From contig CAZJQP010000005.1 of NCBI GenBank assembly GCA_964548225.1, positions 20,453 to 84,452 of the forward strand: a stretch of 64,000 nucleotides of DNA, read 5' to 3'. Source of the DNA: an uncultured Blastocatellaceae bacterium. GTDB taxonomy: Bacteria; Acidobacteriota; Blastocatellia; Pyrinomonadales; Pyrinomonadaceae. The notes under the pieces are model-generated. The model made no database searches, was not told where the DNA came from, and saw only the letters and a program-made list of their open reading frames with translations. The position numbers and the translations under genes were made by a program. Below, piece after piece: positions 37 through 63,321 of the stretch. Position 1 is the first letter of the stretch, and the number at the start of each line of letters is the position of its first letter.

Positions 37-2826
37 TTGAATGATTTTTTTGCCGAAGCGTCTGCGCTCGAAATATCGGCGCAGAGCGATTTTGTGCGAA
101 AAATTTCCGATAAAAACTTGCGCGGCGAACTCGAAGCAATGCTCAAAGCCGTCAAATGCGCCGACCAAAACGATTTTCTCAAAAAAGATGCTTTCTCCCT
201 CGGTGCTGATTTGCTGGTTAAAAATGAAATTCCGCAAACAAGGCAAATCGGCAAATATAAAATAATTAAAGAACTCGGACGCGGCGGAATGGGCGCGGTT
301 TTCTTGGCGGAACGCGAAGATTTCAAACAAAAAGTCGCCTTGAAACTCATCAAACGCGGAATGGACACGGACGAAATTATTCGGCGTTTTCGGCAGGAAA
401 GACAGGTTTTGGCGAAGCTCGAACATCCGAACATCGCGCATCTGCTCGACGGTGGAACGACGGACGACGGTTTGCCATTTTTCGTGATGGAATATGTCGA
501 AGGCGAAACGCTGACGAAATATTGCGAAAAAAATAACCTGAACATCGAAAAACGTCTCGCGCTGTTTCGCAAAGTCTGCGCGGCGGTGGCTTACGCGCAT
601 CAAAATCTAATCGTTCACCGCGACATCAAACCTTCAAATATCATCGTCAACAATGACGGCGAACCGAAACTGCTCGATTTCGGAATTTCGAAACTGCTTG
701 CGCCGAACGCTTTTGAAATGACGGTTGAAGAAACCAAAACGGGCGCAAAATTGATGACTCCCGAATACGCTTCGCCCGAACAAATCAAAGGCGAAACAAT
801 TACGACGGCAACCGATATTTATTCGCTCGGAGTTTTGCTTTACGAACTTTTGAGCGGTCATCGCCCGTTTGCCGCAAAAGATAAAAATTACGAAGATGTT
901 GTAAAAATTATTCTCACCGAAGAACCGCTTCGACCTTCGTCCGTTGTCAGCAGTCTATTATCCGTTGCTAAAGAAACTGACGAAAACAAAGAACGAAGGA
1001 CGAAGAACGAAGGAAAAAATCCAAAATCCAAAATCCAAAATCCAAAATCCTTAATAGGCGATTTGGACAATATCGTTTTGATGTCGCTTCGCAAAGAACC
1101 TTCGCGCCGATACAGTTCGGTTGAGCAATTCAGCGAAGATTTGCGCCGTCATCTTGTCGGCTTGCCGGTTTCGGCACGTCCGGCGACGCTCGGTTACAGA
1201 ACGGCAAAATTTATCGAAAGAAATCGAACAGCAGTTTCTTTTGCATCAATCGCGCTCATCGCTTTGCTCGCGGGTTTGTCAATCGCTATTTGGCAAGCTG
1301 CTGTTGCCAAACAAGAACGCGAGCGAGCCGAACGCCGTCTGACCGAAATCCGAAAATTGACCGCAAATCTTGTTTCGGGTTGGGACAAAAATATTCCCGA
1401 AACGCAAGTTACGGCAGAAGTTCGCGGACGAATTGCTGATATTTCGGCGGAATATCTCGAAGGTTTGGCAAACGAAATCAACGACCCGAAAATTTTGAAA
1501 GAATTGGCGGAAGCCTATCTCAAACTTGGACACGAATATTCGTGGGCGATTACGAATGCGGAAAAAGCGAAAACGAGTTTTCAAAAAGCCGAATCAATCG
1601 CCCGCCAACTTATCGAAGAAAACCCGCAAGATTTGGAAGCAAAAGACTTATTGATTCGCAGTTTGGAAAAATACGACGGTTATTTCGGCGAAAACGACCG
1701 TGAAGAATCTTTGCGGAATCATTTTGAAAGACTGCGTTTGAGCGAAGAAATTTACAACGCAAATCCGAATGACGCAAAAGCTCTCGGAAATCTTTCAAAC
1801 GCCGTTCATAATTGCGGCTGGATTCTAAATCTTCTCGGCAGACGCGAAGAATCTCTGCCTTACTATCGGCGTTCAAACGAACTTTACAAACAACGAATCG
1901 AATTGCTCGAACCAAAAGCGCAAACGTCCGAAGACCGCGTGAAATTAGTCTATTTTTACGGGCATATTGCGATGAATCAAGCCGAATTTTTAGACGAAAT
2001 TCCGAATGCGTTTGAAAATTTCCGCCGCGCTTCAAACCTCGCCGACGAAGTTTATCGTGAAAATCCCGAAGATGAAAACATCGTCATTGCCAAAGTTTCG
2101 GCACAGCGTAGTTTGGGTTTAATTCTGAAAAAAACAAAAGATTTTCGCGCTTCAAACGAAGCCTACCGCGTTGGTTTGGAAACGGTGCGAAATTATAATT
2201 CGCGTTTTCCGAACGGCTACTTTTTCCGTCAACAAACCGATATTTTGCTCGAATTGGCAGAAAATTTTAACGAACTAGGCGATGAAAAATCTGCATTAGA
2301 GTCTTTACACGAATCGCTTGCCGTTTGGAAAAAATATGAAGAACTGGAAACGCAAAAAAATTCGACGCGAAACGACGGATTTCACGCTTATCTATATTAT
2401 CTCGGCGGAAAATTGCTGACACGAATGAACAGATTTGACGAGGCAAACAAAATGTTTGAAGAAGCCGAAATTTACTACAAAAAGACTTCGGAAAACAAAA
2501 CGATTGACACCAACGGTAAGCGAAATTTCGCCAATCTTTATCTGACAATGGGTGATTTACAAACCGGCGCAGGCATTTGCAAATTTGCCGAATCGCCGTT
2601 CGGCGGCTTGGCAAATCAAAGCGTTTATTGCCCTTCGGAGATAAAAACCATTCCGACAAACGACCGCGAAAGAATCGCCAAAGCCAAAAAATATTACGAA
2701 AACGCCCTTGATATTTTGACCGAAATAGAAACAAAAAACCTTTCAATTTATCAAGACAAAGAAAATTTCCGCATCGCACGAGAAAAAATCTTGCTTTGCA
2801 ACGAAAAACTAAACAGCAAACCTTAA
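37..2826 (+). CDS. Hanks-type Ser/Thr protein kinase with one TM segment and C-terminal TPR-like repeats; TTG start in the track, and the reading frame is open to the window edge so the 5' end may lie upstream
   Basis: Kinase motifs GRGGMGAVF (Gly loop), VALK, HRDIKPSNI (catalytic loop), DFGIS, SPE. TM helix AVSFASIALIALLAGLSIAIW. Repeated A-x-x-Y/LG helical repeats in the C-terminal half. Confidence 0.85.
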   Translation: MNDFFAEASALEISAQSDFVRKISDKNLRGELEAMLKAVKCADQNDFLKKDAFSLGADLLVKNEIPQTRQIGKYKIIKELGRGGMGAVFLAEREDFKQKVALKLIKRGMDTDEIIRRFRQERQVLAKLEHPNIAHLLDGGTTDDGLPFFVMEYVEGETLTKYCEKNNLNIEKRLALFRKVCAAVAYAHQNLIVHRDIKPSNIIVNNDGEPKLLDFGISKLLAPNAFEMTVEETKTGAKLMTPEYASPEQIKGETITTATDIYSLGVLLYELLSGHRPFAAKDKNYEDVVKIILTEEPLRPSSVVSSLLSVAKETDENKERRTKNEGKNPKSKIQNPKSLIGDLDNIVLMSLRKEPSRRYSSVEQFSEDLRRHLVGLPVSARPATLGYRTAKFIERNRTAVSFASIALIALLAGLSIAIWQAAVAKQERERAERRLTEIRKLTANLVSGWDKNIPETQVTAEVRGRIADISAEYLEGLANEINDPKILKELAEAYLKLGHEYSWAITNAEKAKTSFQKAESIARQLIEENPQDLEAKDLLIRSLEKYDGYFGENDREESLRNHFERLRLSEEIYNANPNDAKALGNLSNAVHNCGWILNLLGRREESLPYYRRSNELYKQRIELLEPKAQTSEDRVKLVYFYGHIAMNQAEFLDEIPNAFENFRRASNLADEVYRENPEDENIVIAKVSAQRSLGLILKKTKDFRASNEAYRVGLETVRNYNSRFPNGYFFRQQTDILLELAENFNELGDEKSALESLHESLAVWKKYEELETQKNSTRNDGFHAYLYYLGGKLLTRMNRFDEANKMFEEAEIYYKKTSENKTIDTNGKRNFANLYLTMGDLQTGAGICKFAESPFGGLANQSVYCPSEIKTIPTNDRERIAKAKKYYENALDILTEIETKNLSIYQDKENFRIAREKILLCNEKLNSKP
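1014..1050 (+). repeat. (CCAAAAT)n heptanucleotide tandem repeat (about 4.5 units) inside the kinase linker, translated as KNPKSKIQNPKS
   Basis: Direct reading: aaaaatccaaaatccaaaatccaaaatccaaaatcc. Same family as 28196, 35165, 49304 and 63275. Confidence 0.9.
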
Positions 2827-2888
2827 CGAATCGGATCACGCTAAAAAATATCAAAAGGGGAAAACTCTTTAACAAATTCGCTTGGTTT

Positions 2889-4292: not shown

Positions 4293-4309
4293 AATTTTCT
4301 AAATCTTTT

Positions 4310-4353
4310 GTTCAGAGTTACGCTTTTCTGTGTGTGAAACCGTAACTCTGAAC
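4310..4353. repeat. REP-like palindromic element, copy A: GTTCAGAGTTACG-N18-CGTAACTCTGAAC, a perfect 13-bp stem
   Basis: Perfect inverted repeat read directly. The same arms recur at 14691-14727 and 36110-36145. Confidence 0.7.
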
Positions 4354-4537
4354 ATTCTAAAGTTGGTCGGCTATCGTCTTATCTTTTTTAGGCGTGGGAT
4401 TTTTCTCCCAAGGTTCGCGTTGGTCGCCTGAGTAAGTGTCAGGATTGGTCAGATGCGCCGCCGTCTGACAACCTGATGTTAAGATTAAGAAGGTCAAAAC
4501 CAACATCAAACTTAGATTTTTCAGTGTCATATTTAAT

Positions 4538-6765: not shown

Positions 6766-6852
6766 ATTTATATTTTCTTCGTTTTATTTTTAACTCACGT
6801 TACGCGGAGCGCAAATTTTCGATTTATCGCTTCCAACAACAAAAACCGGCAA

Positions 6853-7355
6853 ACTATCGGCAAAAAATATCCAACTATCGGCAAAAGTTGCTGAACTATC
6901 GGCAAAAACTGTGAAACTATCGGCAAAAACTGAGGAACTATCGGCAAAAGTTGCTGAATTATCGGCAAAGGTTGTCCAACTATTGGTAAAAGTTGCTGAA
7001 CTATCGCTGTAAGTTTGCTAACTGTCGCCTTAAGTTCACCAACTATCGCCGTAAATTCACTAACTTTCGCTATTAGTTCATCAACATTCGCCGTTAGTTT
7101 ATCAACTATCTCTGTAAGTTTCGGAACTTACAGCGATAGTTCACCAACTATCTCTGTAAGTTCACCAACTATCGCTGTAAGTTACTCAACTAACGCTGTA
7201 AGTTAATGAACTAACGCCGTAAGCTCATCAACATTCGCCGTTAGTTGGTGAACTATCGCTGTAAGTTGACGAACTATCGCTGTAAGTTGACGAATTAACG
7301 CTGTAAGTTGGTGAACTATCGCCGTTAGTTCACCAACTTACAGCGTTAATTTACT
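6853..7355. repeat. Non-coding array of about 24 tandem 21-bp repeats in two sub-families: about 7 units of CTATCGGCAAAAnnnnnnnAA, then about 17 units of CTATCGCTGTAAGTTnnnnAA, with one unit inverted
   Basis: Strict 21-bp periodicity counted directly. No spacers and no cas genes. The ORF-track peptides over it are repeat artefacts. Confidence 0.9.
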
Positions 7356-11166: not shown

Positions 11167-11224
11167 GTGGTTTTATATGTTTTGGAAAATTGGGTGAGGA
11201 AAGTAAAAGGTAAAAAGTAAAAAA

Positions 11225-11908
11225 ATGTCGGAAAAAAACTGTCCAACTCAAGATAATTTACGCGAATTTCTTGTGGGCGAAATGCCGCCGAGTGAAAAAG
11301 AAACGCTCGAACTGCATTTGGCGGATTGCGCGGATTGTCGGCAAAATTTGGTCGCGGTTTTTGTCGCAAAAGCGGAGGAAACCGAAACTTTCAAAACTCC
11401 GAAACCTTTGACCGAAACCATCAAAAATCTGCCTGCAAGCAAATCGAAAGCAAATTCCCTCTCTTTTTTTTCATTTGCGTGGCTCGGAAAATATCGTTTG
11501 CAGACGGCTTTTGCCGCCATTTTGCTTGTCTGTTTCGGGTTCGCCGGATTTTATTTTCTGCGAAATCAAACGACTTCAAATTCGGACGATGTTTTGCGAA
11601 ACGGCGCGGCAAACAAAGACTTAATTAAACTTCTTGCTCCTGAAGATAGTGTTGTTGTCAAAGGCTCTTTTGTTGAATTTGAATGGGAAAAAGTTTCGGA
11701 TGCAAGTTCTTACATTCTAATTATTTCCGATGAAAAAGGCGATATTATTTTTCAAGAGCAAACCAAACAAACCAAGTTCAATTTCGGACGGGCGTATCCA
11801 TCCAAAAGAGTAAATAAGCAAGACAAAAGTTTTTGGTATGTTCAGGCAAAACTTATTGACGGAAAAATTATAGAATCCACCCCGAGAAAGATTTTTTTTG
11901 AGTATTAA
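11225..11908 (+). CDS. Zinc-finger (ZAS / zf-HC2) anti-sigma factor with one TM helix and an extracytoplasmic C-terminal domain
   Basis: H-x3-C-x2-C motif (HLADCADCRQ) near the N-terminus. TM AFAAILLVCFGFAGFYFL. Lies immediately downstream of the ECF sigma gene. Confidence 0.75.
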   Translation: MSEKNCPTQDNLREFLVGEMPPSEKETLELHLADCADCRQNLVAVFVAKAEETETFKTPKPLTETIKNLPASKSKANSLSFFSFAWLGKYRLQTAFAAILLVCFGFAGFYFLRNQTTSNSDDVLRNGAANKDLIKLLAPEDSVVVKGSFVEFEWEKVSDASSYILIISDEKGDIIFQEQTKQTKFNFGRAYPSKRVNKQDKSFWYVQAKLIDGKIIESTPRKIFFEY

Positions 11909-22403: not shown

Positions 22404-22964
22404 TTAGGCGGCGGTCTTCCATTCGTTCTTTAAAAGTCCGTAGAAAAGAGCATCTTGGGTTTCGCCTTGGACAATCCACCGCTCACGCAGATAGCCTTCT
22501 TTTTGAAATCCGAACCGTTCAAGCAGACGAATCGAAGGCGTGTTTCGCGGGTCAACATCTGCTTCGATGCGATGCAAATTCAACTCCGTGAAAGCGTAAT
22601 TCAAAAGCGCGTTCACAGCTTCCGTAACTAAACCTTTGCCCCAAAATTCGCGGTTGAGAGCATAACCGATTTCGGCGCGGCAATTTTTTTCGTCAATGTG
22701 AAAAAGTGTTGTCGTGCCGATAATTTTATTGTCCGTTTTCAAGGAAATTCCCCATTGAAAAAGCGTGTTCTTTTCAAAATTTTTGTGAATATCGGCAAGA
22801 TAATTTACTGCATCGGCGCGTTCGGCAAACGGCACAATACCAAAAAAACGCATTGCTTCCGAATCGGAAAAAATATCGTAAAGCGAATCAATATCAGCAG
22901 TTTCGATATGACGCAGATTTACTCTCGAAGCCTCGATTACGGGAAGTTTTTCACCTTTAGTCAT
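22404..22964 (-). CDS. GNAT family N-acetyltransferase (RimJ/RimL-like)
   Basis: GNAT motif A (FWGKGLVTEAVNALLNYAF) and the ...RIEADVDPRNTPSIRLLERFGFQKEG tail. Confidence 0.8.
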   Translation of the reverse strand: MTKGEKLPVIEASRVNLRHIETADIDSLYDIFSDSEAMRFFGIVPFAERADAVNYLADIHKNFEKNTLFQWGISLKTDNKIIGTTTLFHIDEKNCRAEIGYALNREFWGKGLVTEAVNALLNYAFTELNLHRIEADVDPRNTPSIRLLERFGFQKEGYLRERWIVQGETQDALFYGLLKNEWKTAA

Positions 22965-23178
22965 AAAAATTATTTGCGTCGCAATTCCTTAATTCTTTTC
23001 CAAAGTTGCGGCAAGGCTTTGCTCGTTTGAAACATCGAAAGTTTCGATATGACGCAGATTTACTCTCGAAGCCTCGATTACGGGAAGTTTTTCACCTTTA
23101 GTCATAAAAATTATTTGCGTCGCAATTCCTTAATTCTTTTCCAAAGTTGCGGCAAGGCTTTGCTCGTTTGAAACATCG
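22899..23178. repeat. Perfect tandem duplication, 2 x 140 bp, spanning the junction of the GNAT gene start and the aldehyde dehydrogenase gene end
   Basis: 22899-23038 equals 23039-23178 base for base. Each copy carries the ALDH 3' end, 6 nt, and the GNAT 5' end. Confidence 0.9.
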
Positions 23179-29878: not shown

Positions 29879-29989
29879 ATAAGTTGAAAAATTCCCTATC
29901 AAATCAAAAAGTGATTTTATCACGAATGCGCGTGATTACCGAAATTTTCAAAAATGAGTTAAATTATCAATAAAAAAAGGAGAAAATTT

Positions 29990-35119: not shown

Positions 35120-35164
35120 AGAGAGATTTTCCCGCAAAGAGGCAAAGAACGCAAAGCGGACTTG

Positions 35165-35197
35165 CAAATCCAAAATCCAAAATCCAAAATCCAAAAT
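35165..35197 (+). repeat. (CCAAAAT)n heptanucleotide tandem repeat (about 4.5 units) in the recX/truB divergent region, ending exactly at the truB ATG
   Basis: aaatccaaaatccaaaatccaaaatccaaaatATG. There is no separate SD sequence. Confidence 0.9.
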
Positions 35198-44668: not shown

Positions 44669-44754
44669 AAATTATAAAAATAGCAGTTTTGCGGGAAAAT
44701 TTAAACGCAAAGACGCATTTGGTTTCAGTGGAGTTTAACAAAAGGAGCTTAACC

Positions 44755-44843
44755 TATCACTTTTCACCTATCACCTATCACTTATTCCGAAAAGTAAAGC
44801 AATTTCTTCCGAAATAAGTGATAGGTGATAGGTGAAAAGTGAT
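44755..44843. promoter_or_regulatory. Perfect 32-bp-arm inverted repeat (TATCACTTTTCACCTATCACCTATCACTTATT ... AATAAGTGATAGGTGATAGGTGAAAAGTGATA) with a 25-nt loop in the divergent aminotransferase/P450 intergenic region
   Basis: Read directly. The arm itself is built from CTATCAC/TTTTCAC sub-repeats. Confidence 0.55.
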
Positions 44844-44873
44844 ATTTGCGCGTTTCGAGAAACGCGCAAATAT
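44842..44873. promoter_or_regulatory. Second perfect palindrome ATATTTGCGCGTTTC-GAG-AAACGCGCAAATAT immediately adjacent to the large inverted repeat
   Basis: Read directly. 14-bp stem. Confidence 0.5.
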
Positions 44874-44914
44874 TTCTGAAGACTTTGCGTAAAAAAATCT
44901 GCTAAAATTGCTTT

Positions 44915-49280: not shown

Positions 49281-49303
49281 TTGAAATTTTGGAATAAAGA
49301 AAA

Positions 49304-49337
49304 CAAATCCAAAATCCAAAATCTAAAATCCAAAATC
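49304..49337 (+). repeat. (CCAAAAT)n heptanucleotide tandem repeat (4 units, one CTAAAAT) 48 nt upstream of nadV
   Basis: aaatccaaaatccaaaatctaaaatccaaaatcg. Confidence 0.9.
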
Positions 49338-49384
49338 GAATTAGGTTTTCAGGGAGAAAGCCGAAAATAGGAGAATAAAATAAA

Positions 49385-50776
49385 ATGTTTGAAATAAATA
49401 GAATAATTGACACGGATTCGTATAAAGCGAGTCATTTTCTGCAATATCCGCCGAAGACGGAGTTTGTGCATTCGTATCTCGAATCGCGTGGTAGCGAACG
49501 GGATTGGAAACATACCGTTTTTTTCGGGTTGCAGTATCTTTTGAAGCGTTATTTTTTAGAAAATTTTACGCAAACGATGGTCGAAGAAGCGCGTGAAATA
49601 ATCACCGCTCACGGCTTGCCTTTTAATTATGAGGGTTGGACAAGTCTTATCAAAAAACACGGCGGAAAAATGCCTCTGCGGGTTCGTGCGGTGGCAGAAG
49701 GTTCGGTTGTGCCGTTGCGAAATGTGATGATGACCGTTGAAAACACGGACGCGGAATTTTATTGGCTGACGAGTTGGTTTGAATCGCAACTGATGCGGAT
49801 TTGGTATCCTTGCACGGTGGCGACGCAAAGCTGGCACATCAAACGTGATGTTTATAAATTTTTGCAAGAAACGGCGGACGATGCCGATGCGGAAATTGCT
49901 TTTAAGGTTCACGACTTCGGCAGTCGCGGCGTTTCTTCGCAGGAAACGGCGGCGATTGGCGGCGCGGCGCATCTCGTTAATTTTATGGGAACGGATACGA
50001 TGTCCGCGCTTTTGATTCACCGCGAATTTTATAATTCACCGATGGCTGGTTTTTCGATTCCGGCGGCTGAACATTCGACAATTACGAGTTGGGGACGCGA
50101 AAACGAGGCAGAAGCGTATCGCAATATGTTGAAACAATTTGCGAAGCCAAACTCTTTAGTTGCAGTAGTTTCGGATTCGTGGAATATTTACGAAGCGGTC
50201 GAAAAAATCTGGGGTGAGCAATTAAAACAGGAAGTCATTGATTCGGGCGCAACGATTGTCATTCGTCCCGATTCGGGCGAACCGATTGAAGTTGTTTCAA
50301 AAGTCGCGCAGATTTTGGGCGAAAAATTCGGCACGACAACGAATTCAAAAGGCTATAAAGTCTTAAAAAACGTCCGCATCATCCAAGGCGACGGCGTGAA
50401 CGAGCAATCAATACATCAGATTTTAGAAAAATTAAAATCGCAAGGCTTCAGCGCGTCAAACATCGCTTTCGGCATCGGCGGCGCGTTGCTGCAAAAGATT
50501 GACCGCGACACTTTGAAATTCGCCTACAAATGCTCGGCAATCGTCGCCGACGGCAAACTTATCGAAGTTTATAAACAACCGATCACCGACAGCGGCAAAA
50601 ACAGCAAAAAAGGACGGCTCGATTTAATCAAAGACGACGCTGGCGAATATCAAACCGTCAAACTCGAATCCGCCGACCAACGCAAAGCCGAAAATTCCCA
50701 AATGCGAACCATTTTTGAAAACGGCGAAATGCTCATTGACGATAATCTGGAAGAAATTCGAAGTAGGGCAATTTAA
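49385..50776 (+). CDS. nadV: Nicotinamide phosphoribosyltransferase (NadV/NAMPT-type)
   Basis: N-terminal DTDSYKASHFLQYPP. Type II PRTase layout of about 460 aa. RBS aggaga. Confidence 0.85.
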   Translation: MFEINRIIDTDSYKASHFLQYPPKTEFVHSYLESRGSERDWKHTVFFGLQYLLKRYFLENFTQTMVEEAREIITAHGLPFNYEGWTSLIKKHGGKMPLRVRAVAEGSVVPLRNVMMTVENTDAEFYWLTSWFESQLMRIWYPCTVATQSWHIKRDVYKFLQETADDADAEIAFKVHDFGSRGVSSQETAAIGGAAHLVNFMGTDTMSALLIHREFYNSPMAGFSIPAAEHSTITSWGRENEAEAYRNMLKQFAKPNSLVAVVSDSWNIYEAVEKIWGEQLKQEVIDSGATIVIRPDSGEPIEVVSKVAQILGEKFGTTTNSKGYKVLKNVRIIQGDGVNEQSIHQILEKLKSQGFSASNIAFGIGGALLQKIDRDTLKFAYKCSAIVADGKLIEVYKQPITDSGKNSKKGRLDLIKDDAGEYQTVKLESADQRKAENSQMRTIFENGEMLIDDNLEEIRSRAI

Positions 50777-51109: not shown

Positions 51110-52291
51110 TCATATTCTTAACGGCATGACGATATATTTGTAGTTGTAATTCGTGTCGCCGGCGATGTTCATCATCGTTTGGGCGTTGCCGTTTTTGAAC
51201 TCGAAGGCGATGCGTTGACGGTTTGATGATTCTTTGACTTTGACTTTTTCGCCATCAGTTTCGTTTTCGGTTACGGATTCGGCTTCTTTTGCAGTAACGA
51301 CGCTCAAAAATTCTTGCAAATACTGCGAATTGAAACCAACTTGGACTTCTTCGCCCGTGTAATCCGCGACGACTGATTCGTTTGCTTCGCCTTCTTCCGA
51401 ACTTTGTGCGCCGATTTCGATTTCGCCGGATTTGATGGTTAATTTTACCGAGCGTGTGCGTTCATCAGCCATTAATGAAACGCGGCGAATCGCCGATTTC
51501 ATTTCTTCTAAATCGAAAGTCGCAACTTTGTCGTTGTCTTTCGGAATAACCATTTCGTAATTCGGAAAATTTCCTGAAAGTTTGCGTGTGATAAGAAGTC
51601 GCCCGTCAACTTCAAAATAGATGTGATTCGGGTCTTCGCCGAAACTGACATCGCTTTTTGCGTCGCGCGAGATTTTTACGAGTTCCATCAGAGCTTTTTT
51701 CGGAATCAGTGCGTCCATCGTTTCCGCCGGCGCGTTTTCGCCTAAATTTCTATCAATATAAGCCAAACGATGTCCGTCGGTCGTAACCATTTTCGCCATT
51801 CCGCCGTCAACGATAAACTTTGCGCCCGAAAGCGTAAAGCGCGATTGCTCATTCGTTATTGCAAAAGCTGTGTGTTGAATAAAATGATTGAAGATTTCCG
51901 CCGAGAGTTTCATTGGCGCAGATTTGAAAGAGGGAACTTCAGGGAAATTATCTTTTGAAACGCCTGCCAAACGAAATTTCGATTTGCCGCAGGTCATTTT
52001 TACCCAATCGTTTTCTTCCTTCGTAAAATGCACGTCGCCGTTTTCCAACAACCGAACAATGTCGAAAAGTTTCCGTGCCTGTATGCACATCGCGCCCGAT
52101 TGTTTGATGTCCGCTTCCGCTTCGCAACGAATCGTTACGTCTAAATCCGTCCCGACAATCCGAATCGTGTTTTCACCAACCGATTCAATTAAAATATTCG
52201 ACAAAACGGGAATAGTTGATTTCTTTTCAACAATCCCTTGCACAAATCCGAGTTCATCTTTTAATGTGCCTTGCTTAATTACAAATTCCAT
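51110..52291 (-). CDS. dnaN: DNA polymerase III beta subunit (sliding clamp)
   Basis: About 390 aa, three-domain clamp pattern. N-terminus MEFVIKQGTLKDELGFVQGIVEKKSTIPVLSNILIE. Downstream of dnaA on the same strand. Confidence 0.9.
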   Translation of the reverse strand: MEFVIKQGTLKDELGFVQGIVEKKSTIPVLSNILIESVGENTIRIVGTDLDVTIRCEAEADIKQSGAMCIQARKLFDIVRLLENGDVHFTKEENDWVKMTCGKSKFRLAGVSKDNFPEVPSFKSAPMKLSAEIFNHFIQHTAFAITNEQSRFTLSGAKFIVDGGMAKMVTTDGHRLAYIDRNLGENAPAETMDALIPKKALMELVKISRDAKSDVSFGEDPNHIYFEVDGRLLITRKLSGNFPNYEMVIPKDNDKVATFDLEEMKSAIRRVSLMADERTRSVKLTIKSGEIEIGAQSSEEGEANESVVADYTGEEVQVGFNSQYLQEFLSVVTAKEAESVTENETDGEKVKVKESSNRQRIAFEFKNGNAQTMMNIAGDTNYNYKYIVMPLRI

Positions 52292-52404
52292 TCTATTGCT
52301 CCTAATTGTTTGATACGAGTATGTTTTTTATTTTAGGCGGTATTTTCTTTTTAGACAATTTCGATTTTTCAATTTTTCTCCGTCGCTGAAAGCGATATAA
52401 AAAC

Positions 52405-52818
52405 TCAAAACTTCTTATCCATTAGTTGCCAATTTCCGTCTTCGCCTTTTTTAAATACAAAACCATAACCTTTTCCTTCTCTATAAAAACCGCTTCCTTC
52501 AAAATGCGAAGCGCGAATAATTCCAAATGTGTTTTTTTCTCTTTCTACGTCATAACGAAAAGTTTCCCAAATTTCTCTTACTTCCTTTTTAAGTTCTTCC
52601 AAATTTTCAATGGAAATATCTGTTTCGTAATTCATAACCAAAGCAGTTTCTCCGTTTTGAAAATTCATTCCGCCGATGTTGTTAATTTTAATTTCTTTTC
52701 CCGAGGGCAATTTCGTTTTTTGAGAAGACTTGATTTCGTTTGAATTATTATTTTTGCTCTCGGAACAGCCGAAACAAATTAAAGACAAAATGAATATTAT
52801 TGCGAGTTTCGTTTTCAT
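52405..52818 (-). CDS. Small lipoprotein, hypothetical, located between the dnaA-dnaN DnaA-box cluster and dnaN
   Basis: CFGC lipobox after a signal peptide. Confidence 0.5.
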   Translation of the reverse strand: MKTKLAIIFILSLICFGCSESKNNNSNEIKSSQKTKLPSGKEIKINNIGGMNFQNGETALVMNYETDISIENLEELKKEVREIWETFRYDVEREKNTFGIIRASHFEGSGFYREGKGYGFVFKKGEDGNWQLMDKKF

Positions 52819-52925
52819 CTTTTCTATGAATTATACCTCAAGTTTTACTTTCAAAATTCGCCGCTTTTTACTTCTTCTATTTATTTTAAAAACAGTATAT
52901 TTAAATAGTATTAGTAGTAGTGCCT

Positions 52926-53171
52926 GTGGAAAAGTGGAAAAGCCACTTTATTGAAGAAATAGTTAAACTTACACGCCCACAGTCGCTGTGGAAAACTTGT
53001 GGAAAACTTGCTTGTCTGTGGAAAAAATTGACAACACGACACCTTTTTCCACAGTTTCCACAGGCACATTTTTCCTCAGCCTGTGGAAAAGTGGAAAACT
53101 TTGTTTAAGTATTGTATCTAAACAGAATACTTAAATTTTATAATCCGTTATATGTGGAAACTTTCCACTGA
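52926..53171. other. oriC element: cluster of at least 10 DnaA boxes (TGTGGAAAA / TTTTCCACA variants, both orientations) downstream of dnaA, with an adjacent AT-rich candidate DNA-unwinding element at about 52840-52920
   Basis: Boxes read at 52926, 52935, 52987, 52999, 53017, 53044(rc), 53054(rc), 53082, 53091, 53153 and 53163(rc). AT-rich tract tttattttaaaaacagtatatttaaatagtattagtag. Confidence 0.75.
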
Positions 53172-53193
53172 AACTTTTCGTGAAATTTCCTAA

Positions 53194-54642
53194 CTAACTG
53201 CAAAGATTATCAATTAGCTCGCTGACAATCCTGTGGAAATTTCTATCGTCTTTAATTACCGATTCAATCTTTTCAACCGAGTGCATCACGGTCGTGTGAT
53301 GTTTGCCGCCAAACTCGCGTCCGATTTCGGGAAAGCTGTGTTTTGTTAACCTTTTGCACAAATACATTGCCACTTGTCGCGGCACGGCAATTTGGCGCGA
53401 ATTGTTTTTCGATTTGATTTCTTCAATCGTCAATTTGTAATGCGACGCGACCATTTTCGCAATGCGTTCCATCGTCAGATTTTCCGGTTGGTCGCTGTCA
53501 ACGATATTTTTCATCGCGTCTTGCGCCAACATTTTTGAAATCGGAATGCCTCGTAAACTGGAAATCGCCACAAGCCGCACGAGCGAACCTTCGAGTTCGC
53601 GGATGTTACTGCGAACTTTACTCGCAATAAAAAACGCAATTTCGTCGGGTAAATTTACGCCGTCCAAATCCGCTTTTCTTTTTAAAATCGCAACTTTTGT
53701 TTCCAAATCCGGCGGTTCGATGTCAGCAATCAAGCCCCATTCAAAGCGCGAATGCAATCTTTCTTCTAATGTTGGAATTTCACGCGGCGGACAATCCGAA
53801 GTAATCACGATTTGCTTTTGGTCATTATGAAGCGCGTTAAATGTATGGAAAAATTCTTCCTGCGTCCGCTCTTTTCCAGCCATAAATTGCACGTCGTCCA
53901 TCAGTAAAACGTCAATCGAACGATATTTGTCGCGGAAAGTCTGCGTTTTATCGTAACGAATCGCGTTAATCAATTCGTTCATAAATTTTTCGGCAGAAAT
54001 ATATGCAACTCTTAAATGACGATTTCTTTCCTTAATCGCGTGTCCGGCGGCGTGCATCAGATGCGTTTTGCCAAGCCCGACACCGCCGTAAATATACATT
54101 GGGTTATAAGTTTTGCCCGGCGATTCGGCAACGGCAAGCGCGGCGGCGTGAGCAAATTGATTGCACGAACCGACAACAAATGTGCCGAATGTGTATTTCG
54201 GATTAAGCGAATTTTCAATCGGTTCGATGTCAACAAAGTTTGTCGGATTCGTTTTTGCGGGAATTTCGGTTTTCGGTTTATCGGCAAAGTTCACGCCGTT
54301 TGTTGGGAACGGGTTCGGATTGATACGATTTTTCTCGAACAAAAATTCGACTTCTTCGTCGAAGTCTTCGTCGCTTAAATCGGTTTCTTCAATCTCCCAA
54401 TCGAGTCGGTAATTTGAAAGATTCAACTCTTTCAAAGTTTGTGTAATGACTTCGGAATAATATGTATTTACCCAATCTTTATTTACCTGACTGGCGCGAA
54501 GATGCAGAATTTTGTCCTGTTCATCGCAACCGTCAAATTGAATCGAGCGAAACCACGCATCGAAAATTTGTTTATTCAGACGCTTTTCTACCGATTGCAA
54601 AATATTATTCCAAACCGTTCTATTTTCCGACGAAACTTCCAT
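53194..54642 (-). CDS. dnaA: Chromosomal replication initiator DnaA (start at [12 protein letters not shown]; the ORF-track N-terminal extension is probably not coding)
   Basis: AAA+ Walker [14 protein letters not shown], Walker B LLMDDVQF, sensor/arginine finger, C-terminal DNA-binding HTH (...[32 protein letters not shown]...). Confidence 0.95.
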
Positions 54643-54808
54643 TTGTTTCTCTCCCGACCGAAATTTTGTTAAATCTTTAATAAAACTTTTAAGCAAAAAT
54701 CTATGTTTTCGTAATTTATAAAAATACCTCCGAAATTCGTTTAGCAATTTCCGACAAGTCTTTCTATTTTGGTTACTTTAGCGAGTTTTGCGTGTCCTTG
54801 AAATAAAG

Positions 54809-54964
54809 TTTTCCACAAAGTTTTCCACAGGCTTGTGGAAAGTTGCTTAAAAGTTAATGTAAAACTTTAAGTCTAATATTATCAATAACTTACAAGAAAT
54901 TATATTAAGGAAACGGTTCACAGAGTAACAAAAAAAAAGCCGAATTGCAAGCAAATATCCACAG
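54809..54964. other. oriC element: second DnaA-box cluster upstream of dnaA (TTTTCCACA x2, TGTGGAAAG, and a near-consensus aTATCCACA at 54956) with an AT-rich tract at 54848-54915
   Basis: Boxes read directly. Bipartite arrangement flanking dnaA. Confidence 0.65.
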
Positions 54965-55082
54965 ATGAGGAAAATTTTTTCACGAAGTATGTAAAGTCTT
55001 TTTTTGACAGCTATTTGGCAGAATTTACGAAAGTGTTTTATAGTCAAAACAGCTTGATTCAAGCACGTTATATCAAAGGAAA

Positions 55083-57627: not shown

Positions 57628-57636
57628 TTTATTGGT

Positions 57637-57966: not shown

Positions 57967-58644
57967 TTATTTTTTCTCGATTTGCGATTGCGTCCAATTT
58001 TTCACGGCTTCGCGCAGTTCGTTTAAATGATTGTCGAAAAAATGTCCGCAATTTTCAAAATAAACCAATTCGGCGGTTGGAATTTTATCAGCTAAATTTT
58101 TCACGTTTTCGAGTGCGCCGAACTCGTCGCGGTCGCCGTGAATGAAAAGAATCGGTTTGCGAAGATTCTCCAAATAATCGAAATCATTGTATTTATCAAC
58201 CGGTGTTCCGATGCTGATTAGACGAACAACGCGGTCGTCATTTATCGCAACTTCGCTTCCCATTCTTGAGCCAAACGAAAATCCTGCCAGCGTAATTTCC
58301 AAATTTGGATAATTTTCCGTGAGATAATCCAAACAATCGCGCACGTCCTGCACTTCCGCTTTGCCGTTGTGTTCACCGTCGGACGCGCCAACGCCGCGAA
58401 AATTAAACCGCAAAGTAATCAAACCCGCATCAACAAGCCCGGCGGCGGCGCGAAAAACGACTTTGTTGTGCATCGTTCCGCCGCCCAATGGATGCGGATG
58501 ACACACGAGCGCAACGCCTTTTGCTTCGCCTTGCGGCTCTTTCAAAATCGCTTCAAGTTGCCCGACGAGAGCGGGAATAAACAGATTGCCTTTAGGATAC
58601 ATAATCAAATTTTTGATTTTAAATTTTAGATTTTCGATTAGCAA
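57967..58644 (-). CDS. Alpha/beta hydrolase (dienelactone hydrolase-like)
   Basis: VALVCHPHPLGGG..., nucleophile elbow AGFSFGS, later Asp/His (HGDRDE...GHFF). Confidence 0.7.
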   Translation of the reverse strand: MLIENLKFKIKNLIMYPKGNLFIPALVGQLEAILKEPQGEAKGVALVCHPHPLGGGTMHNKVVFRAAAGLVDAGLITLRFNFRGVGASDGEHNGKAEVQDVRDCLDYLTENYPNLEITLAGFSFGSRMGSEVAINDDRVVRLISIGTPVDKYNDFDYLENLRKPILFIHGDRDEFGALENVKNLADKIPTAELVYFENCGHFFDNHLNELREAVKNWTQSQIEKK

Positions 58645-58659: not shown

Positions 58660-58880
58660 AGCTGAATTTTATTGTTCGACGAGGCTGAATATTCTATCGA
58701 AGATTTCAAATATTCGGCAGAAAAATCAGATTTGTCGAGCGAAGATTTCAAATATTCTATCGAAGAAAGTGTTTCTTCGATAGAATATTTGCTTTCGGCG
58801 AGCGACTATTTTGATTTGGCGGCAGACAATTTGCGTTCTTCGACCGAAGATTTTCAAATTTTGCCCTTCTTTATTAGAAG
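58660..58880. promoter_or_regulatory. Divergent promoter region containing direct and inverted copies of an approximately 25-bp motif GAAGATTTCAAATATTCTATCGAAG
   Basis: tattctatcgaagatttcaaatattc / gaagatttcaaatattctatcgaagaa / cttcgatagaatatttg (inverted) / cgaagattttcaaatttt. Confidence 0.5.
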
Positions 58881-58941
58881 TCTTGCGCGATTTCGTGTTA
58901 TTTTTTCTTATTCGACTTAACTTTCCGAATAGTTAATAAAA

Positions 58942-60762: not shown

Positions 60763-60781
60763 ATTTTATGACAACACGAAG

Positions 60782-61246: not shown

Positions 61247-61262
61247 CATAGGAGAAATAAAA

Positions 61263-62447
61263 GTGGCAGAAAAAGAAATCCGCGAACGAAAACCAACCGC
61301 CCGAAGAATTTTTCTCGACCAGTCAACGCCTTCGAGTTGGGCTGTCGTGCGAATTGTTTTTATAGCTTTTATCGTCTGGAACGGTGCGGATTTCGTTCGG
61401 GCAAAATTTTCTTCGCTGACGAGTCTTTTGTTTATGCTGGTGCTTTCGATTTTCTTTGCGTATTTGATTGATCCGCTCGTAAAAATCATCCGCCAGCCGT
61501 TCAAAGAACGTCAACTCGAAAAAGTTATGCCGCGACCTTTGGCGATTCTTATTGCATATGCGTTGGTTTTCACGATTCTCGGCGTAGCAATTTCGAATCT
61601 CGCGCCGAAAGCTGCCACTCAAGCCCGAGAATTTGCCGAGAATTTGCCGAATTATGCTTCAAATTTTCAAGAACGACTGAATGAGTTTAATAAACGCTTT
61701 GAGAATTTTCAGATACCTGAGAATGTCCAAAAGCAAATAAACGAAAAAATAACCGCGAAAATCGGTGAACTCGGAACGGCAATCACGGAATTTCTCGGTT
61801 CATTGGCATTCAGCATCGGAACTTACCTGCCGTGGCTTTTTTTAATTCCTATTTTGTCATTTTTCTTTTTGAAAGACGTAAATATGTTTCGCCTTTCAAT
61901 TTTGCGAATTTTTCCTTCGGGGCGTTGGCGGGCGCGGGCGGAAGCAGTTTTGCAAGACGTAAATTTCACACTCGCCGCATACACGCGGGCGCAGCTTATT
62001 TCCTGCATTTTAATCGGTTTAGTGTGTATGCTCGGATTTTATCTGATCGGAATGAAATACACGATCTTACTCGGCATTATGGCAGGGGTTTTAGAGTTTA
62101 TTCCGCTTATCGGTCCACTCGTTTTAGCAATTACGGCAACGCTTATTGCGCTGTTTTCAGATGATCCTTGGAAAGCTCTTTATGTGATTATTTTTCTCGT
62201 TGTTTTACGGATTATTCACGACTATGTTACCTACCCGCGTATTATTCGCGGCGGGATTCATCTGCATCCTTTGGCAATTATTCTATCGGTTCTTGCAGGA
62301 GAACAAATCGCCGGAATCGCCGGTGTTTTTCTCTCAATTCCGATTGTTGCGCTCCTTACCGTTTTCTACAAACACATTCTTGAACACACCGGAAAACGCG
62401 GTCTCTTTGCCGGATTCTTGGAAGAAGGGGAGAAAGCGAGAAAGTGA
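61263..62447 (+). CDS. AI-2E family (PerM/YhhT, UPF0118) membrane transporter
   Basis: About 390 aa, 8 TM helices, characteristic ...GIMAGVLEFIPLIGPLVLAITATLIALF... segment. Confidence 0.7.
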   Translation: MAEKEIRERKPTARRIFLDQSTPSSWAVVRIVFIAFIVWNGADFVRAKFSSLTSLLFMLVLSIFFAYLIDPLVKIIRQPFKERQLEKVMPRPLAILIAYALVFTILGVAISNLAPKAATQAREFAENLPNYASNFQERLNEFNKRFENFQIPENVQKQINEKITAKIGELGTAITEFLGSLAFSIGTYLPWLFLIPILSFFFLKDVNMFRLSILRIFPSGRWRARAEAVLQDVNFTLAAYTRAQLISCILIGLVCMLGFYLIGMKYTILLGIMAGVLEFIPLIGPLVLAITATLIALFSDDPWKALYVIIFLVVLRIIHDYVTYPRIIRGGIHLHPLAIILSVLAGEQIAGIAGVFLSIPIVALLTVFYKHILEHTGKRGLFAGFLEEGEKARK

Positions 62448-62543
62448 GAAGGGGAGAAATTTTTGTTGATAAACTTGAAAGTAAAAATAACACTCAAGTT
62501 TATTAACAAAAAAAAATCTCCCCTTCTCACTTTCCCGCTTTCT
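62431..62543. terminator. Large near-perfect inverted repeat (about 30-bp arms AGAAAGCGAGAAAGTGAGAAGGGGAGAAATTTT / AAAAATCTCCCCTTCTCACTTTCCCGCTTTCT) with a nested hairpin in the loop, between convergent genes; the left arm overlaps the last codons of the AI-2E gene
   Basis: Read directly. A/T runs at the stem ends in both directions. Confidence 0.6.
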
Positions 62544-62552
62544 GTCTCTTCC

Positions 62553-63272
62553 TCAGATGGCTTCTGCACCGGCGGCGCGGTTGTAATCGTAATAAAGAGC
62601 GTTAAAATCGCGTAAGGCTCGATTTAGAATTAACGGAATTTGCGGAATGTCGTTTGAATTGATGATTAAATTCAAATTTCTGAGAAAAGCGTCGTGTGCG
62701 TTCATCGTCGCGCCTGTTTCTTCGACGGAAACGAAAAACAGACGGCGGCGTTCTGATGCGGGCATCGAATTAACTTTTTGTTGCAAAATTGCCGTTCCTC
62801 CGAATTCTGAGGCAAAATCAGGCGAGAAAAGCAAAATTTCCGTTTTGCCTTCGCGCAAGCGTTCATTTGCCTGCGCCGGAGTTTGTGCGAGATAAACTTT
62901 GTAACCGGATTCGACCAAAGTTTTGGCTAAAATATCACGCTTTGCGCCCATACAAAGCAACACCCGGCGTGGTTTTTCGCTTTTTTCATCGTCCGCATCC
63001 ATAACCGTGTTTTCGGTTTTCAAAGCTGAAAGCAGGGAACGAAGCGCATTATTTATCTGAAATTCATTTTCCTTAGCCGAAAAATCTTGTGTGTTTTCTT
63101 GCACCGCAGGCGCGGCGGCGTTTTCTTTTAATTGCTGAACGGTTGATTTCGCGCCCGGCGAAACGCGAATTAAATTTTGACAGCGCGGACACCGAACAGT
63201 AAAATTCCCGCTTGGAATTTTCGATTCATCAAGTTGCAGAGAAACAGAGCAATTATCACAGCGTATTATCAT
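62553..63272 (-). CDS. N-terminal zinc-ribbon (CxxC...CxxC) protein with a C-terminal degenerate receiver-like (pseudo-REC) domain
   Basis: CDNCSVSL...CPRCQNL. The region ...RVLLCMGAKRDILAKTLVESGYKVYLAQTPAQANERLREGKTEILLFSPDF has a CheY-like alternation but lacks the DD acidic pair. Confidence 0.5.
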   Translation of the reverse strand: MIIRCDNCSVSLQLDESKIPSGNFTVRCPRCQNLIRVSPGAKSTVQQLKENAAAPAVQENTQDFSAKENEFQINNALRSLLSALKTENTVMDADDEKSEKPRRVLLCMGAKRDILAKTLVESGYKVYLAQTPAQANERLREGKTEILLFSPDFASEFGGTAILQQKVNSMPASERRRLFFVSVEETGATMNAHDAFLRNLNLIINSNDIPQIPLILNRALRDFNALYYDYNRAAGAEAI

Positions 63273-63274
63273 AA

Positions 63275-63321
63275 TTTTGGTTTTTGGTTTTTAGTTTTTG
63301 GTCTTTGGTCTTTGGTTTTTG
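63275..63321 (-). repeat. Heptanucleotide tandem repeat, variant unit (AACCAAA/GACCAAA)n, ending 2 nt before the start codon of the zinc-ribbon/pseudo-REC gene
   Basis: + strand ttttggtttttggtttttagtttttggtctttggtctttggtttttg. Followed by the inverted partial copy gcgaaaaaccaag, which can pair with it. Confidence 0.85.

Follow-up and report, generated by a model that had tools for sequence, protein, structure and literature searches.

Period-7 tandem arrays of many unrelated units at gene boundaries and in variable coding loops of an acidobacterial genome segment

We analyzed a stretch of 64,000 nucleotides (the window) from an uncultured Pyrinomonadaceae-like soil acidobacterium (contig CAZJQP010000005.1, forward strand, positions 20,453 to 84,452), in which an earlier note had described a dispersed family of (CCAAAAT)n heptanucleotide tandem arrays at five loci. 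The window sequence contains all five arrays at the reported sites, and Pfam gene assignments agree with their division between coding and intergenic positions. These arrays, the genes beside them, and further arrays located with Tandem Repeats Finder (TRF) are listed below; labels beginning with L, here and in the text, denote loci or contigs outside the window.

37-2826, plus strand: Ser/Thr kinase gene with TPR repeats (Pfam)
980-1012, plus strand: (ACGAAGA)4.9 in the kinase coding region, 4 nt before the CCAAAAT array, encoding ENKERRTKNEG (TRF)
1016-1050, plus strand: perfect (AAAATCC)5.0 in the kinase coding region, encoding NPKSKIQNPKS (TRF)
11200-11223, plus strand: (AAAGTAA)3.4, ending 1 nt before the ATG of the zf-HC2 anti-sigma gene (TRF)
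11225-11908: zf-HC2 anti-sigma gene
27092-29923, minus strand: alaS gene (Pfam)
28203-28234, minus strand: (TTCAAGA)4.6 sense-strand array in alaS (GAATCTT on the plus strand), encoding IQNSRFKIQDS (TRF)
34559-35119, minus strand: recX gene, divergent from truB
35133-35156, plus strand: imperfect CGCAAAG-type repeat in the recX-truB divergent spacer, kept in L221 and L222 (TRF)
35166-35197, plus strand: perfect (CCAAAAT)4.6, its final base adjoining the truB ATG at 35198 (TRF)
35198-36106, plus strand: truB gene (Pfam)
35676-35708, plus strand: (CATTCAA/CATTCAG)4.7 inside truB, encoding FNIQHSTFSIR (TRF)
44752-44785 and 44814-44844: inverted pair (CACCTAT)n ... (ATAGGTG)n in the divergent aminotransferase/P450 spacer, with a stem of ~32-45 bp
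49305-49337, plus strand: (CCAAAAT)4.7 with one CTAAAAT unit, between the NADAR gene stop (49280) and the nadV ATG (49385) (TRF)
49385-50776, plus strand: nadV (NAMPT) gene (Pfam)
54264-54284, minus strand: (ACCGAAA)2.9 sense-strand array in dnaA (TRF)
57967-58602, minus strand: alpha/beta-hydrolase gene
58609-58639, minus strand: (CTAAAAT-like)4.4, ending 6 nt before the alpha/beta-hydrolase ATG (TRF)
62430-62545: inverted pair of period 8 (GAGAAAGC) in the convergent AI-2E transporter/zinc-ribbon spacer (TRF; self-inverted blast match)
62553-63272, minus strand: zinc-ribbon protein gene (Pfam)
63275-63321, minus strand: (ACCAAAA)6.7 sense-strand array (TTTTGGT on the plus strand), ending 2 nt before the zinc-ribbon ATG at 63272
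63273-63352, minus strand: intercistronic element from the stop of a PilT-like ATPase gene to the zinc-ribbon ATG

Period 7 stands out from the sequence as a whole. TRF found 11 period-7 arrays of at least three copies, against a mean of 0.2 in 30 dinucleotide shuffles, and across periods 4 to 12 the only others were two arrays, both of period 8. Exact runs of at least three copies numbered 3 at period 7 and 0 at periods 5, 6, and 8 to 15. By TRF, the 64 kb hold about 13 arrays with at least eight unrelated units, and coding regions contain about half of the unpaired ones. Those beyond the first five are at 980-1012, 11200-11223, 35676-35708, 44752-44785 with 44814-44844, 54264-54284, and 58609-58639, and the inverted partner arm of the zinc-ribbon array (~63322-63347) had also been overlooked. 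Because unrelated units such as ACGAAGA, AAAGTAA, CATTCAA, and CACCTAT behave like the CCAAAAT arrays, and because sister species swap units at orthologous sites, the idea of a CCAAAAT family proved too narrow. The object is a general population of period-7 arrays, of which CCAAAAT is merely the commonest unit in the window. Searches of the window with Rfam at gathering thresholds and with a tRNA scan gave no matches.

An assembly artifact can be ruled out. Eight independent metagenome contigs carry the zinc-ribbon array without a single base difference; since these contigs, identical across the whole spacer, come from several sequencing runs, the arrays must be real, and the recurrence of the truB array in other assemblies excludes an artifact as well. 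The earlier note had suggested comparing assemblies for variation in copy number, but none appeared at the imperfect zinc-ribbon array in the 8 same-species contigs, which derive from different samples, and the truB array is of equal length in three species. Short-read (Logan) contigs L001, L134, L138/L139, and L220 stop inside the heptamer arrays of nadV, the kinase gene, the aminotransferase gene, and truB, as expected for repeats longer than the assembly k-mer, and the copy number of perfect arrays is therefore not comparable within species. Within-species contigs were sought by exact-protein look-up with nadV, the kinase neighbor, and the aminotransferase, and those returned end at the arrays; the same look-up with truB and its downstream neighbor returned no contigs. 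Heptamer arrays are also open in all six frames and lengthen open reading frames (ORFs) upstream of true starts, as in the ORF at 35027-36106 that covers truB.

The zinc-ribbon array forms one arm of a hairpin. On the sense strand, the element runs from a GT-rich arm of TTTTGGT type (~63322-63347) through a 3-nt loop to the CA-rich (ACCAAAA)6.7, and reads TAA-TCAGC-TTTTGGTTTTTGGGCTTGGTTTTT-CGC-AAAAACCAAAGACCAAAGACCAAAAAC...CCAAAATT-ATG. Its predicted RNA fold (63270-63352) has a free energy of -24.7 kcal/mol and a z-score of -4.8. The inverted pair between the aminotransferase and P450 genes folds more strongly still, with -53.6 and -60.1 kcal/mol predicted for RNA from the two strands of 44745-44850 (z-scores of -11.8 and -13.2). 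Strain contigs L138 and L139 carry one single-nucleotide polymorphism in this pair, and both end at the array. Directly after the pair, ~40 nt upstream of the P450 gene, lies a perfect palindrome with the halves ATATTTGCGCGTTTC and GAGAAACGCGCAAATAT (44845-44876), which could be an operator.

Contigs of sister species, which are 79-90% identical in nucleotide sequence to the coding DNA of the window, have heptamer arrays at the same three intergenic positions (upstream of the zinc-ribbon, hydrolase, and nadV genes) but with other units. Upstream of the zinc-ribbon gene, a sister GGTAATC...CCAATTA inverted pair occupies the place of TTTTGGT...ACCAAAA in the window; upstream of the hydrolase gene, L135 has (TGTAATC)4 and the window (AAAATCT)4; and upstream of nadV, L136 and L137 have a 26-bp ACATAGA/TCTATGT hairpin where the window has a direct CCAAAAT array.

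A search of metagenomes with the zinc-ribbon protein yielded 80 loci (67-95% amino acid identity), from which we extracted the spacer between the stop of the upstream PilT-like ATPase gene (peptide ...LDMIE*) and the zinc-ribbon ATG, giving 72 distinct sequences, 63 of them at least 40 nt long. Among the 72, a period-7 array lies in the ATG-side half in 39, in the stop-side half in 35, and in both in 29, while 24 of the 63 longer spacers lack an ATG-adjacent array although the gene is still present. The 39 ATG-side arrays use 25 canonical units, including TAACTGA, CCAAAAT, CGAACAA, CTACTGA, CCACTGA, and CCCTAAT. The array ends a median of 6 nt from the ATG (9 nt or less in 31 of 39), and the left arm starts 0-10 nt past the stop codon in 31 of 35 spacers. 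Where both arms are present, the right unit is the exact reverse complement of the left in 15 of 29 cases and departs from it by no more than two mismatches in 26. Hairpins with a z-score below -4 are predicted for 28 of the 39 spacers with arrays versus 3 of the 24 without. Polarity is constant, with the ATG-side arm composed of 38% A, 32% C, 21% T, and 9% G and the stop-side arm of 29% G, 32% T, 27% A, and 12% C. The usual layout is thus stop, GT-rich array, loop, CA-rich array, ~6 nt, ATG, and it is this architecture that is conserved while the sequence of the unit turns over.

Two further observations concern these orthologues. The exact unit TAACTGA occurs upstream of the zinc-ribbon gene as arrays of 3.5-5.5 copies with a complementary CAGTTAT arm in L144, L150, L151, and L167, which are metagenome loci of acidobacterial type, and the same position in L158 carries telomere-like CCCTAAT/CCCTAAC arrays. 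The spacer 3' of the zinc-ribbon gene is a second hot spot of period-7 inverted pairs in the orthologous loci; in the window it holds the period-8 pair listed above.

The spacer between recX and truB behaves differently from the others in that its sequence, and not only its layout, is kept. The truB orthologues were collected by protein homology, so the sample is not selected on array sequence. L222 and L223, which represent one species with 78% TruB amino acid identity, have the identical (CCAAAAT)4.6 against the ATG. In L221 (85% amino acid identity) the length of the array is unchanged but its units have mutated to ATCCGCA ATCTGCA ATCCAAA ATCCGAA, and only one CAAAAT is kept, at a distance of 17 nt from a conserved upstream TTGCAA and 7 nt from the ATG. 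The window correspondingly reads TTGCAA, 17 nt, CAAAAT, 7 nt, ATG. The whole spacer, at 78 nt, has an invariant length and ~92% conservation among species with TruB proteins 15-22% apart. Facing recX, a GAAAAT-N6-ATG arrangement retains the hexamer while N6 varies: the apparent recX ATG (35119-35117, minus strand) is preceded by a conserved GGGAAAAT and then by 6 nonconserved nt in the window, L221, and L222. This is the geometry expected of a -10 element serving a leaderless transcript. Taken as sequence, the truB spacer points to a promoter of fixed length and possibly to leaderless transcripts, although sigma-70 scans called no promoter at truB, nadV, or the zinc-ribbon gene.

Arrays of this kind are not confined to the window or its relatives. 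At least 120 loci were found when one genome per species was scanned for (CCAAAAT)3CC. The 120 matches listed comprise, by record titles, ~54 in Cyanobacteria, ~27 in Acidobacteriota, ~20 in Chloroflexota, 5 in Planctomycetota, 4 in Verrucomicrobiota, and 10 in others, so that the search of other taxa proposed in the earlier note did recover the same unit. The Cyanobacteria among these matches include the finished genomes of Calothrix NIES-22 and Sphaerospermopsis NIES-73, and arrays were seen in Nostoc, Calothrix, Fischerella, and Oscillatoria. When the loci among the matches listed were combined with the window (922 kb), we counted 346 arrays at period 7 versus 14-21 at periods 6 and 8, and ~200 of the period-7 arrays lay outside the CCAAAAT hits and used dozens of units. 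A second period census covered 213 kb of related sequence, and 7-nt units predominated in both sets; for the window, the shuffle control shows tracts beyond chance.

Viral contigs provided a comparison with units of matched composition. CCAAAAT arrays were found there in 24 stretches, and the control heptamers CACATAA, CAAATCA, and ACAACTA in 18, 6, and 36. This rules out CCAAAAT as a privileged unit, since composition-matched heptamers are equally common in these contigs; it is one among many amplifiable A/C-rich heptamers.

The earlier note also held that the CCAAAAT-like strand is always the sense strand. As a statement about the containing or nearest downstream gene this stands, the A-rich strand being sense for five of five of the reported arrays and for all 10 unpaired arrays. 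It fails as an absolute rule: the inverted pairs at 63273-63352 and 44752-44844 place both orientations on one transcript, and the truB array is antisense to the divergent recX. From a reading of the TRF units, A exceeds T on the sense strand in 10 of the 10 unpaired arrays, against a background of 48% of sense-strand heptamers (p ~6e-4). The window is also a setting in which most genes lack a Shine-Dalgarno sequence and leaders are A-rich: a Shine-Dalgarno-like 4-mer is present in only 16 of 43 genes, and the 40 nt ahead of gene starts are 42% A and 15% G. The gap between array and ATG is 0 nt at truB, 1 at the anti-sigma gene, 2 at the zinc-ribbon gene, and 6 at the hydrolase gene. For the direct arrays of truB, nadV, and the hydrolase gene, no RNA structure is predicted (z-scores of -0.8 to +0.9). 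A G-poor array can neither hold ATG, GTG, TTG, or a Shine-Dalgarno sequence nor fold upon itself, which gives a simple selective reason for its orientation.

For a test across phyla we used the loci of the one-genome-per-species scan, again confined to the 120 matches listed. The array was in sense orientation in 46 occurrences in 43 distinct ORFs, deep within long reading frames, and because these ORFs match 105 Pfam families (including nonribosomal peptide synthetases, MnmE, xanthine dehydrogenase, CobN, and kinases) they are real genes. An ORF-only count gave 21 antisense occurrences, and 1 of the 10 distinct antisense candidate ORFs had a Pfam match. That one is a membrane protein, which is consistent with the antisense peptide ILDFGFW being tolerated in hydrophobic contexts only. 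Relative to gene 5' ends, 30 arrays were sense-only and 6 antisense-only (p=7e-5), and the array ended within 6 nt of the first in-frame start codon in 8 of 29. In several other phyla, arrays stop 3-6 nt before the ATG. We also considered whether in-ORF arrays are concentrated in kinases at a fixed position; with only 2 kinases among the 43 ORFs and 105 Pfam families matched, this was ruled out.

Within genes, the arrays occupy variable segments. The CCAAAAT array of the kinase had been placed in a linker; it lies instead in a hypervariable loop of the kinase domain itself, between the conserved P..PS and LRG-DLDNI motifs and just before DLDNI, and not between domains. In 85 orthologues this loop is 7-61 residues long, and decayed peptides of heptamer origin, such as NPQSAIR, PKSEIRNPKS, and NSRFEIRDS, are frequent in it. 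In many orthologues the loop ends N-P-K-S-L-R-G, encoded by AATCCAAAATCC, a proto-repeat of 1.7 units, and the NPKSKIQNPKS of the window is this ancestral NPKS motif plus exactly 21 bp. That in-gene copies are kept in frame, as the earlier note remarked, is true of any intact gene, and the informative part is the NPKS motif with the 21-bp addition. Two acidobacterial metagenome-assembled genomes, L089 and L098, have a perfect (CCAAAAT)4 at the identical kinase site, a perfection that reflects sampling because they were found by an exact-pattern scan; each also has a second kinase array upstream, with a different unit in each (AGTTCAA and a GTGGTCA-like unit).

The other coding-region arrays are similarly placed. 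In alaS the array sits in a 9-residue insertion relative to solved AlaS structures, the segment with the array inside truB varies between orthologues (it differs, for example, in L222), and the dnaA array falls in the N-terminal variable region ahead of the ATPase domain. A sense CCAAAAT array encodes a hydrophilic peptide of NPKSKIQ type in all three frames, which is probably disordered, and the opposite strand would encode the hydrophobic ILDFGFW. A period-8 AGAAAGGG repeat is also present in truB (35458-35492), where it encodes KKEGEKEGKGEKE, and this insertion varies among L220, L221, and L222.

Details of two other leader regions deserve mention. The nadV array lies 47 nt before the ATG and has one inverted unit, ATTTTGG, upstream of it (~49288-49294). 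Between array and gene lies a small hairpin, GGUUUUC-AGGGA-GAAAGCC, with an AGGAG Shine-Dalgarno sequence after it (window 49344-49384; L136 3699-3740). The sister species retains this hairpin, with U-A in place of a U·G pair through a single G-to-A substitution, and the GGA of its loop together with the GGA of the Shine-Dalgarno sequence resembles a CsrA-type site pair, without a match in Rfam. Contig L003, from another strain, encodes an identical NadV protein and has 99.7% nucleotide identity downstream, while its upstream DNA and gene are wholly different. Its similarity to the window starts within ~3 nt of the 3' end of the array (L003 1-545 versus window 49337-49340), and the discontinuity may mark either a breakpoint of recombination at the array or chimerism of the contig. 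At the hydrolase gene, a promoter-like TTGCTA-17-TAAAAT overlaps the array and was the sole, weak hit of the sigma-70 scan. The divergent spacer between the hydrolase gene and a gene of 606 aa also contains two blocks of imperfect AATATTCGATCGAAGATTTCA-like repeats with a 21-nt period (58688-58838), which are missing from the shorter spacer of the sister species L135.

Other repeats lie elsewhere in the window. The neighborhood of a replication origin (51110-55000) includes dnaN (51110-52291, minus strand) and dnaA (53194-54747, minus strand), with clusters of DnaA-box-like TGTGGAAAA/TTTTCCACA repeats at 52926-53098 and 54805-54829. In the interval from an SH3-domain gene to a small ORF, a 21-bp unit (21 = 3 x 7) is repeated ~24 times in tandem (6840-7338); the copies share a quasi-palindromic core AACTATCGCTGTAAGTT, some of them are inverted, and no ORF of at least 100 aa overlaps the region, which resembles a series of protein-binding sites. 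At 22899-23180, a 141-bp segment is perfectly duplicated in tandem (2.0 copies, 100% identity). It spans the 5' end of one gene, for a GNAT acetyltransferase, and the 3' end of another, for an aldehyde dehydrogenase, and could be a recent duplication or an assembly artifact.

Considering these results together, we favor with moderate confidence the reading that the arrays are heptamer repeats born of slippage, similar to the short tandemly repeated repetitive (STRR) sequences of cyanobacteria, that have been filtered by selection at the level of translation and in some places co-opted as leader or promoter spacers or as stop-to-start hairpins. Local 7-nt motifs would be amplified by slipped-strand mispairing, and inverted arms would be kept complementary at the level of the unit consensus, perhaps through hairpin-templated strand switching. 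The data show that selection on translation sets which arrays survive and in which orientation. Inside genes, arrays are kept in variable loops alone, where the sense strand is the A/C-rich one, and add a hydrophilic peptide such as NPKSKIQ. At gene boundaries the A/C-rich, G-poor strand faces the downstream gene, often to within 0-7 nt of the ATG and with no Shine-Dalgarno sequence, and would provide a leader that is unstructured and free of spurious starts or Shine-Dalgarno sequences and that would suit a genome with mostly non-Shine-Dalgarno genes and A-rich leaders. At truB, co-option may have fixed the length between a -35 TTGCAA, 17 nt, a -10 CAAAAT, 7 nt, and the ATG, to give a leaderless or near-leaderless transcript. 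Stem-loops of inverted pairs could mask the leader until the upstream gene is translated, or could stabilize the mRNA; a meltable hairpin running from stop to leader has the geometry expected for translational coupling.

Several results weigh against this reading or parts of it. Slippage was not seen directly, the 8 same-species contigs being equal and the perfect truB array having the same length at 78% amino acid identity, and with no copy-number differences slippage must be rare or length strongly selected. The truB promoter matches at 8 of 12 positions, under the threshold of the sigma-70 scanner, and the retention of its -10 element comes from one divergent species, for which chance alone would give 1 in 4. 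The gene calls behind the cross-phylum orientation bias are crude ORF calls. In the hairpins, variant units of one arm do not match those of the other by position (13 of 23, p=0.9 by permutation of unit order), and the sense RNA is less stable than the antisense in 27 of 31 (by a mean of 4.2 kcal/mol, p=4e-5), which is a poor fit to simple selection for a maximally stable stem in the sense RNA. On the sense strand the mismatches are of A·C type, and both arms are shifted toward A and C. A count of G·U against A·C wobbles had lent support to an RNA stem, but the fairer comparison of sense and antisense folding overturned it. Arms kept complementary at the level of DNA, probably by slippage inside each arm and strand switching from one arm to the other, with a pressure toward A and C on the sense strand added to this, fit the hairpin tests better.

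Of the alternatives, a purely neutral by-product, in which period-7-biased slippage acts everywhere, harmful arrays are purged, and the survivors, hairpins included, have no function, seems unlikely to us but is the chief rival. It accounts readily for the many unrelated units per genome, for the fast turnover of units and the gain and loss of arrays between sister species, for the zinc-ribbon genes that persist with no ATG-side array (the 24 of 63), for sense RNA stems that are not optimized and whose unit order is unmatched between arms, and for control heptamers as common as CCAAAAT in viral contigs. It is harder to reconcile with a truB array and 78-nt spacer held at ~92% conservation and invariant length while TruB diverged by 15-22%, with a stop-arm-loop-arm-ATG layout and polarity that recur in 29-39 distinct orthologous sequences despite complete replacement of the unit, or with the clustering of arrays a few nucleotides from start codons. 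That same truB spacer, in which L221 keeps just the CAAAAT of the promoter-like arrangement, mutates the other three units, and retains the length, is one argument for regarding the arrays as promoter elements, with CAAAAT as the -10 hexamer, the array length spacing -35, -10, and start, and transcripts that are leaderless or have very short leaders. The GAAAAT-N6-ATG of recX with its variable N6, the TTGCTA-17-TAAAAT overlapping the hydrolase array, and the arrays ending 3-6 nt before the ATG in several other phyla point the same way. Nevertheless we consider this account improbable: the match at truB is below the scan threshold (the consensus being that of sigma-70, which may not be that of Acidobacteriota), CCAATTA, TGTAATC, CTACTGA, and CGAACAA stand at equivalent positions with no -10-like hexamer, and arrays within coding sequences and intercistronic hairpins are left unexplained.

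The recurrence of an identical unit at 3-4 loci in 64 kb, its forward orientation beside start codons, and its reappearance across phyla might instead suggest sequence-specific binding sites that define a regulon, recognized either by an RNA-binding translational regulator, a hypothesis put forward for TAACTGA repeats (PMC4679880), or by a DNA repressor with one heptad per dimer, as in the omega system. This is very improbable, given that sister species use other units at orthologous sites, that the window has at least eight unrelated units, that truB, alaS, dnaA, nadV, the kinase, and the hydrolase share no function, and that control heptamers occur in viral contigs as often as CCAAAAT does. 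Conservation of the architecture with differing units at the zinc-ribbon, hydrolase, and nadV genes also makes a CCAAAAT-specific regulator unlikely. We give almost no credence to contingency loci, in which a hypermutable copy number would switch adjacent genes as the 7-bp repeats upstream of Haemophilus hmw1A do; perfect repeats do lie between promoter-like elements and start codons, and copy number differs among related species in TAACTGA-type and other arrays, but the 8 same-species contigs show no length polymorphism, truB has identical lengths across three species, the genes are housekeeping rather than surface or virulence genes, and a change of a single unit in a coding-region array would cause a frameshift.

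A more far-reaching reading, which we regard as improbable, is that the arrays and their inverted partners form a self-renewing cis element, whose stop-arm-loop-arm-ATG layout would endure over long times as both arms exchange their unit jointly. It would need a systematic mechanism, whether slippage with hairpin-templated strand switching or a dedicated, horizontally spread activity that makes repeats. If true, such a mechanism would explain the patchy occurrence of identical units in Cyanobacteria, Chloroflexota, Acidobacteriota, Planctomycetota, Verrucomicrobiota, Beggiatoaceae, and Bacteroidetes, and the element would give STRR-type repeats a function in the structural control of translation initiation or coupling.

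Heptamer repeats of the STRR, TAACTGA, and GGGAATC types have been known for 35 years with no accepted function or origin, and the phenomenon, even with the same units, extends to Acidobacteriota. In the series of 72 spacers, the constrained features (period 7, placement, a G-poor sense strand, and complementarity of the arms) can be told apart from the unconstrained one (sequence). The series argues against repeat-specific binding factors and makes the function of STRRs approachable by experiment, with the truB/recX spacer suited to the question of promoters and leaderless transcripts and the ATPase-zinc-ribbon spacer to that of translational coupling. In practical terms, the arrays fragment short-read assemblies, and the extension of ORFs upstream of true starts misleads gene callers.

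Among known systems, the earlier comparison with STRRs was apt. As in STRRs, the units are tandem 7-bp repeats, and inverted arrays form intergenic hairpins; CCAAAAT itself is arrayed in cyanobacteria. STRRs are of several unit types per genome and are dispersed mostly at gene boundaries, a pattern that the 64 kb of this genome, with about 13 arrays and at least eight units, may share. The host of the window arrays, however, is an acidobacterium of Pyrinomonadaceae type and not a filamentous cyanobacterium, and about half of its unpaired arrays are in coding regions. The canonical STRR units reported by Mazel et al. (1990) are CCCCAGT, TTGGTCA, and CAACAGT, and none of these is among the TRF units of the window, so that the view that the unit differs from those of STRRs holds for these canonical units, but not more generally, given the cyanobacterial CCAAAAT arrays. 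GTGGTCA-like and CAGTCAA-like units do occur in the related loci L098, L154, and L144. Jackman and Mulligan (1995) reportedly described nif intergenic regions of Anabaena as 'highly variable but structured', which would match the unit turnover with retained hairpins seen here. For the STRR hairpins between hupS and hupL in cyanobacteria, transcript stabilization or translational coupling has been proposed (PMC2670836).

The comparison extends to other period-7 repeats. In the census of long simple sequence repeats (LSSRs) by Mrazek, Guo and Shah (2007), as summarized in PMC4679880 and PMC4692102, heptamers are the most abundant class, are phylogenetically scattered, and are proposed to arise by polymerase slippage. 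The excess of long repeats beyond composition and the predominance of the 7-nt class are common to that census and our data, while in those summaries Acidobacteriota are not among the LSSR-rich genomes listed, and start-codon abutment, sense bias, inverted pairs, and unit turnover at orthologous sites are not described. TAACTGA repeats, found in marine Beggiatoaceae, some Cyanobacteria, and Bacteroidetes, abut starts that lack a Shine-Dalgarno sequence (MacGregor 2015, PMC4679880). Like the window arrays, they have 2-6 heptamer copies in forward orientation a few nucleotides upstream of such starts, precede genes with no functional theme, occasionally lie in ORFs, and break contigs. They differ in that one unit dominates the genome and related heptamers are rarely repeated, whereas here many units coexist; TRF found no TAACTGA array in the window. 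The regulator that binds the repeat, which that paper favors (PMC4679880), is argued against here by unit turnover. The G-rich GGGAATC and GGGGAYT repeats of Xanthomonas and Nostoc (Rehm et al. 2015, PMC4692102) are likewise intergenic, sometimes form inverted pairs, and lie between the same genes in relatives with varying length and sequence, but they can form G-quadruplexes, whereas the window arrays are G-poor on the sense strand and cannot form quadruplexes.

Other systems are less similar. The 7-bp simple sequence repeats upstream of hmw1A/hmw2A in Haemophilus influenzae have hypervariable copy number within populations and control adhesins (PMC8262952, PMC12721329), unlike the arrays described here, which show no copy-number polymorphism and adjoin housekeeping genes. 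Repetitive extragenic palindromes and bacterial interspersed mosaic elements, in which one palindromic sequence recurs at many loci of a genome, are also unlike them, since the three hairpins of the window have the unrelated arms ACCAAAA, CACCTAT, and GAGAAAGC. The ribbon-helix-helix protein omega of pSM19035 binds promoter heptads with the consensus WATCACW, and its repressor gene is cognate to them; judged on their units, CCAAAAT-type arrays are off this consensus and only the pair at 44752-44844 (CTATCAC) is similar. A literature search for CCAAAAT arrays in any rotation returned incidental sequence matches only, and one for heptamer repeats in Acidobacteria found no paper. The window arrays fit the structural definitions of STRRs and LSSRs, and depart from STRRs in host and canonical units and from TAACTGA repeats in their lack of a single dominant unit. 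We therefore file them as a known class of repeat with a new host phylum and a new dominant unit.

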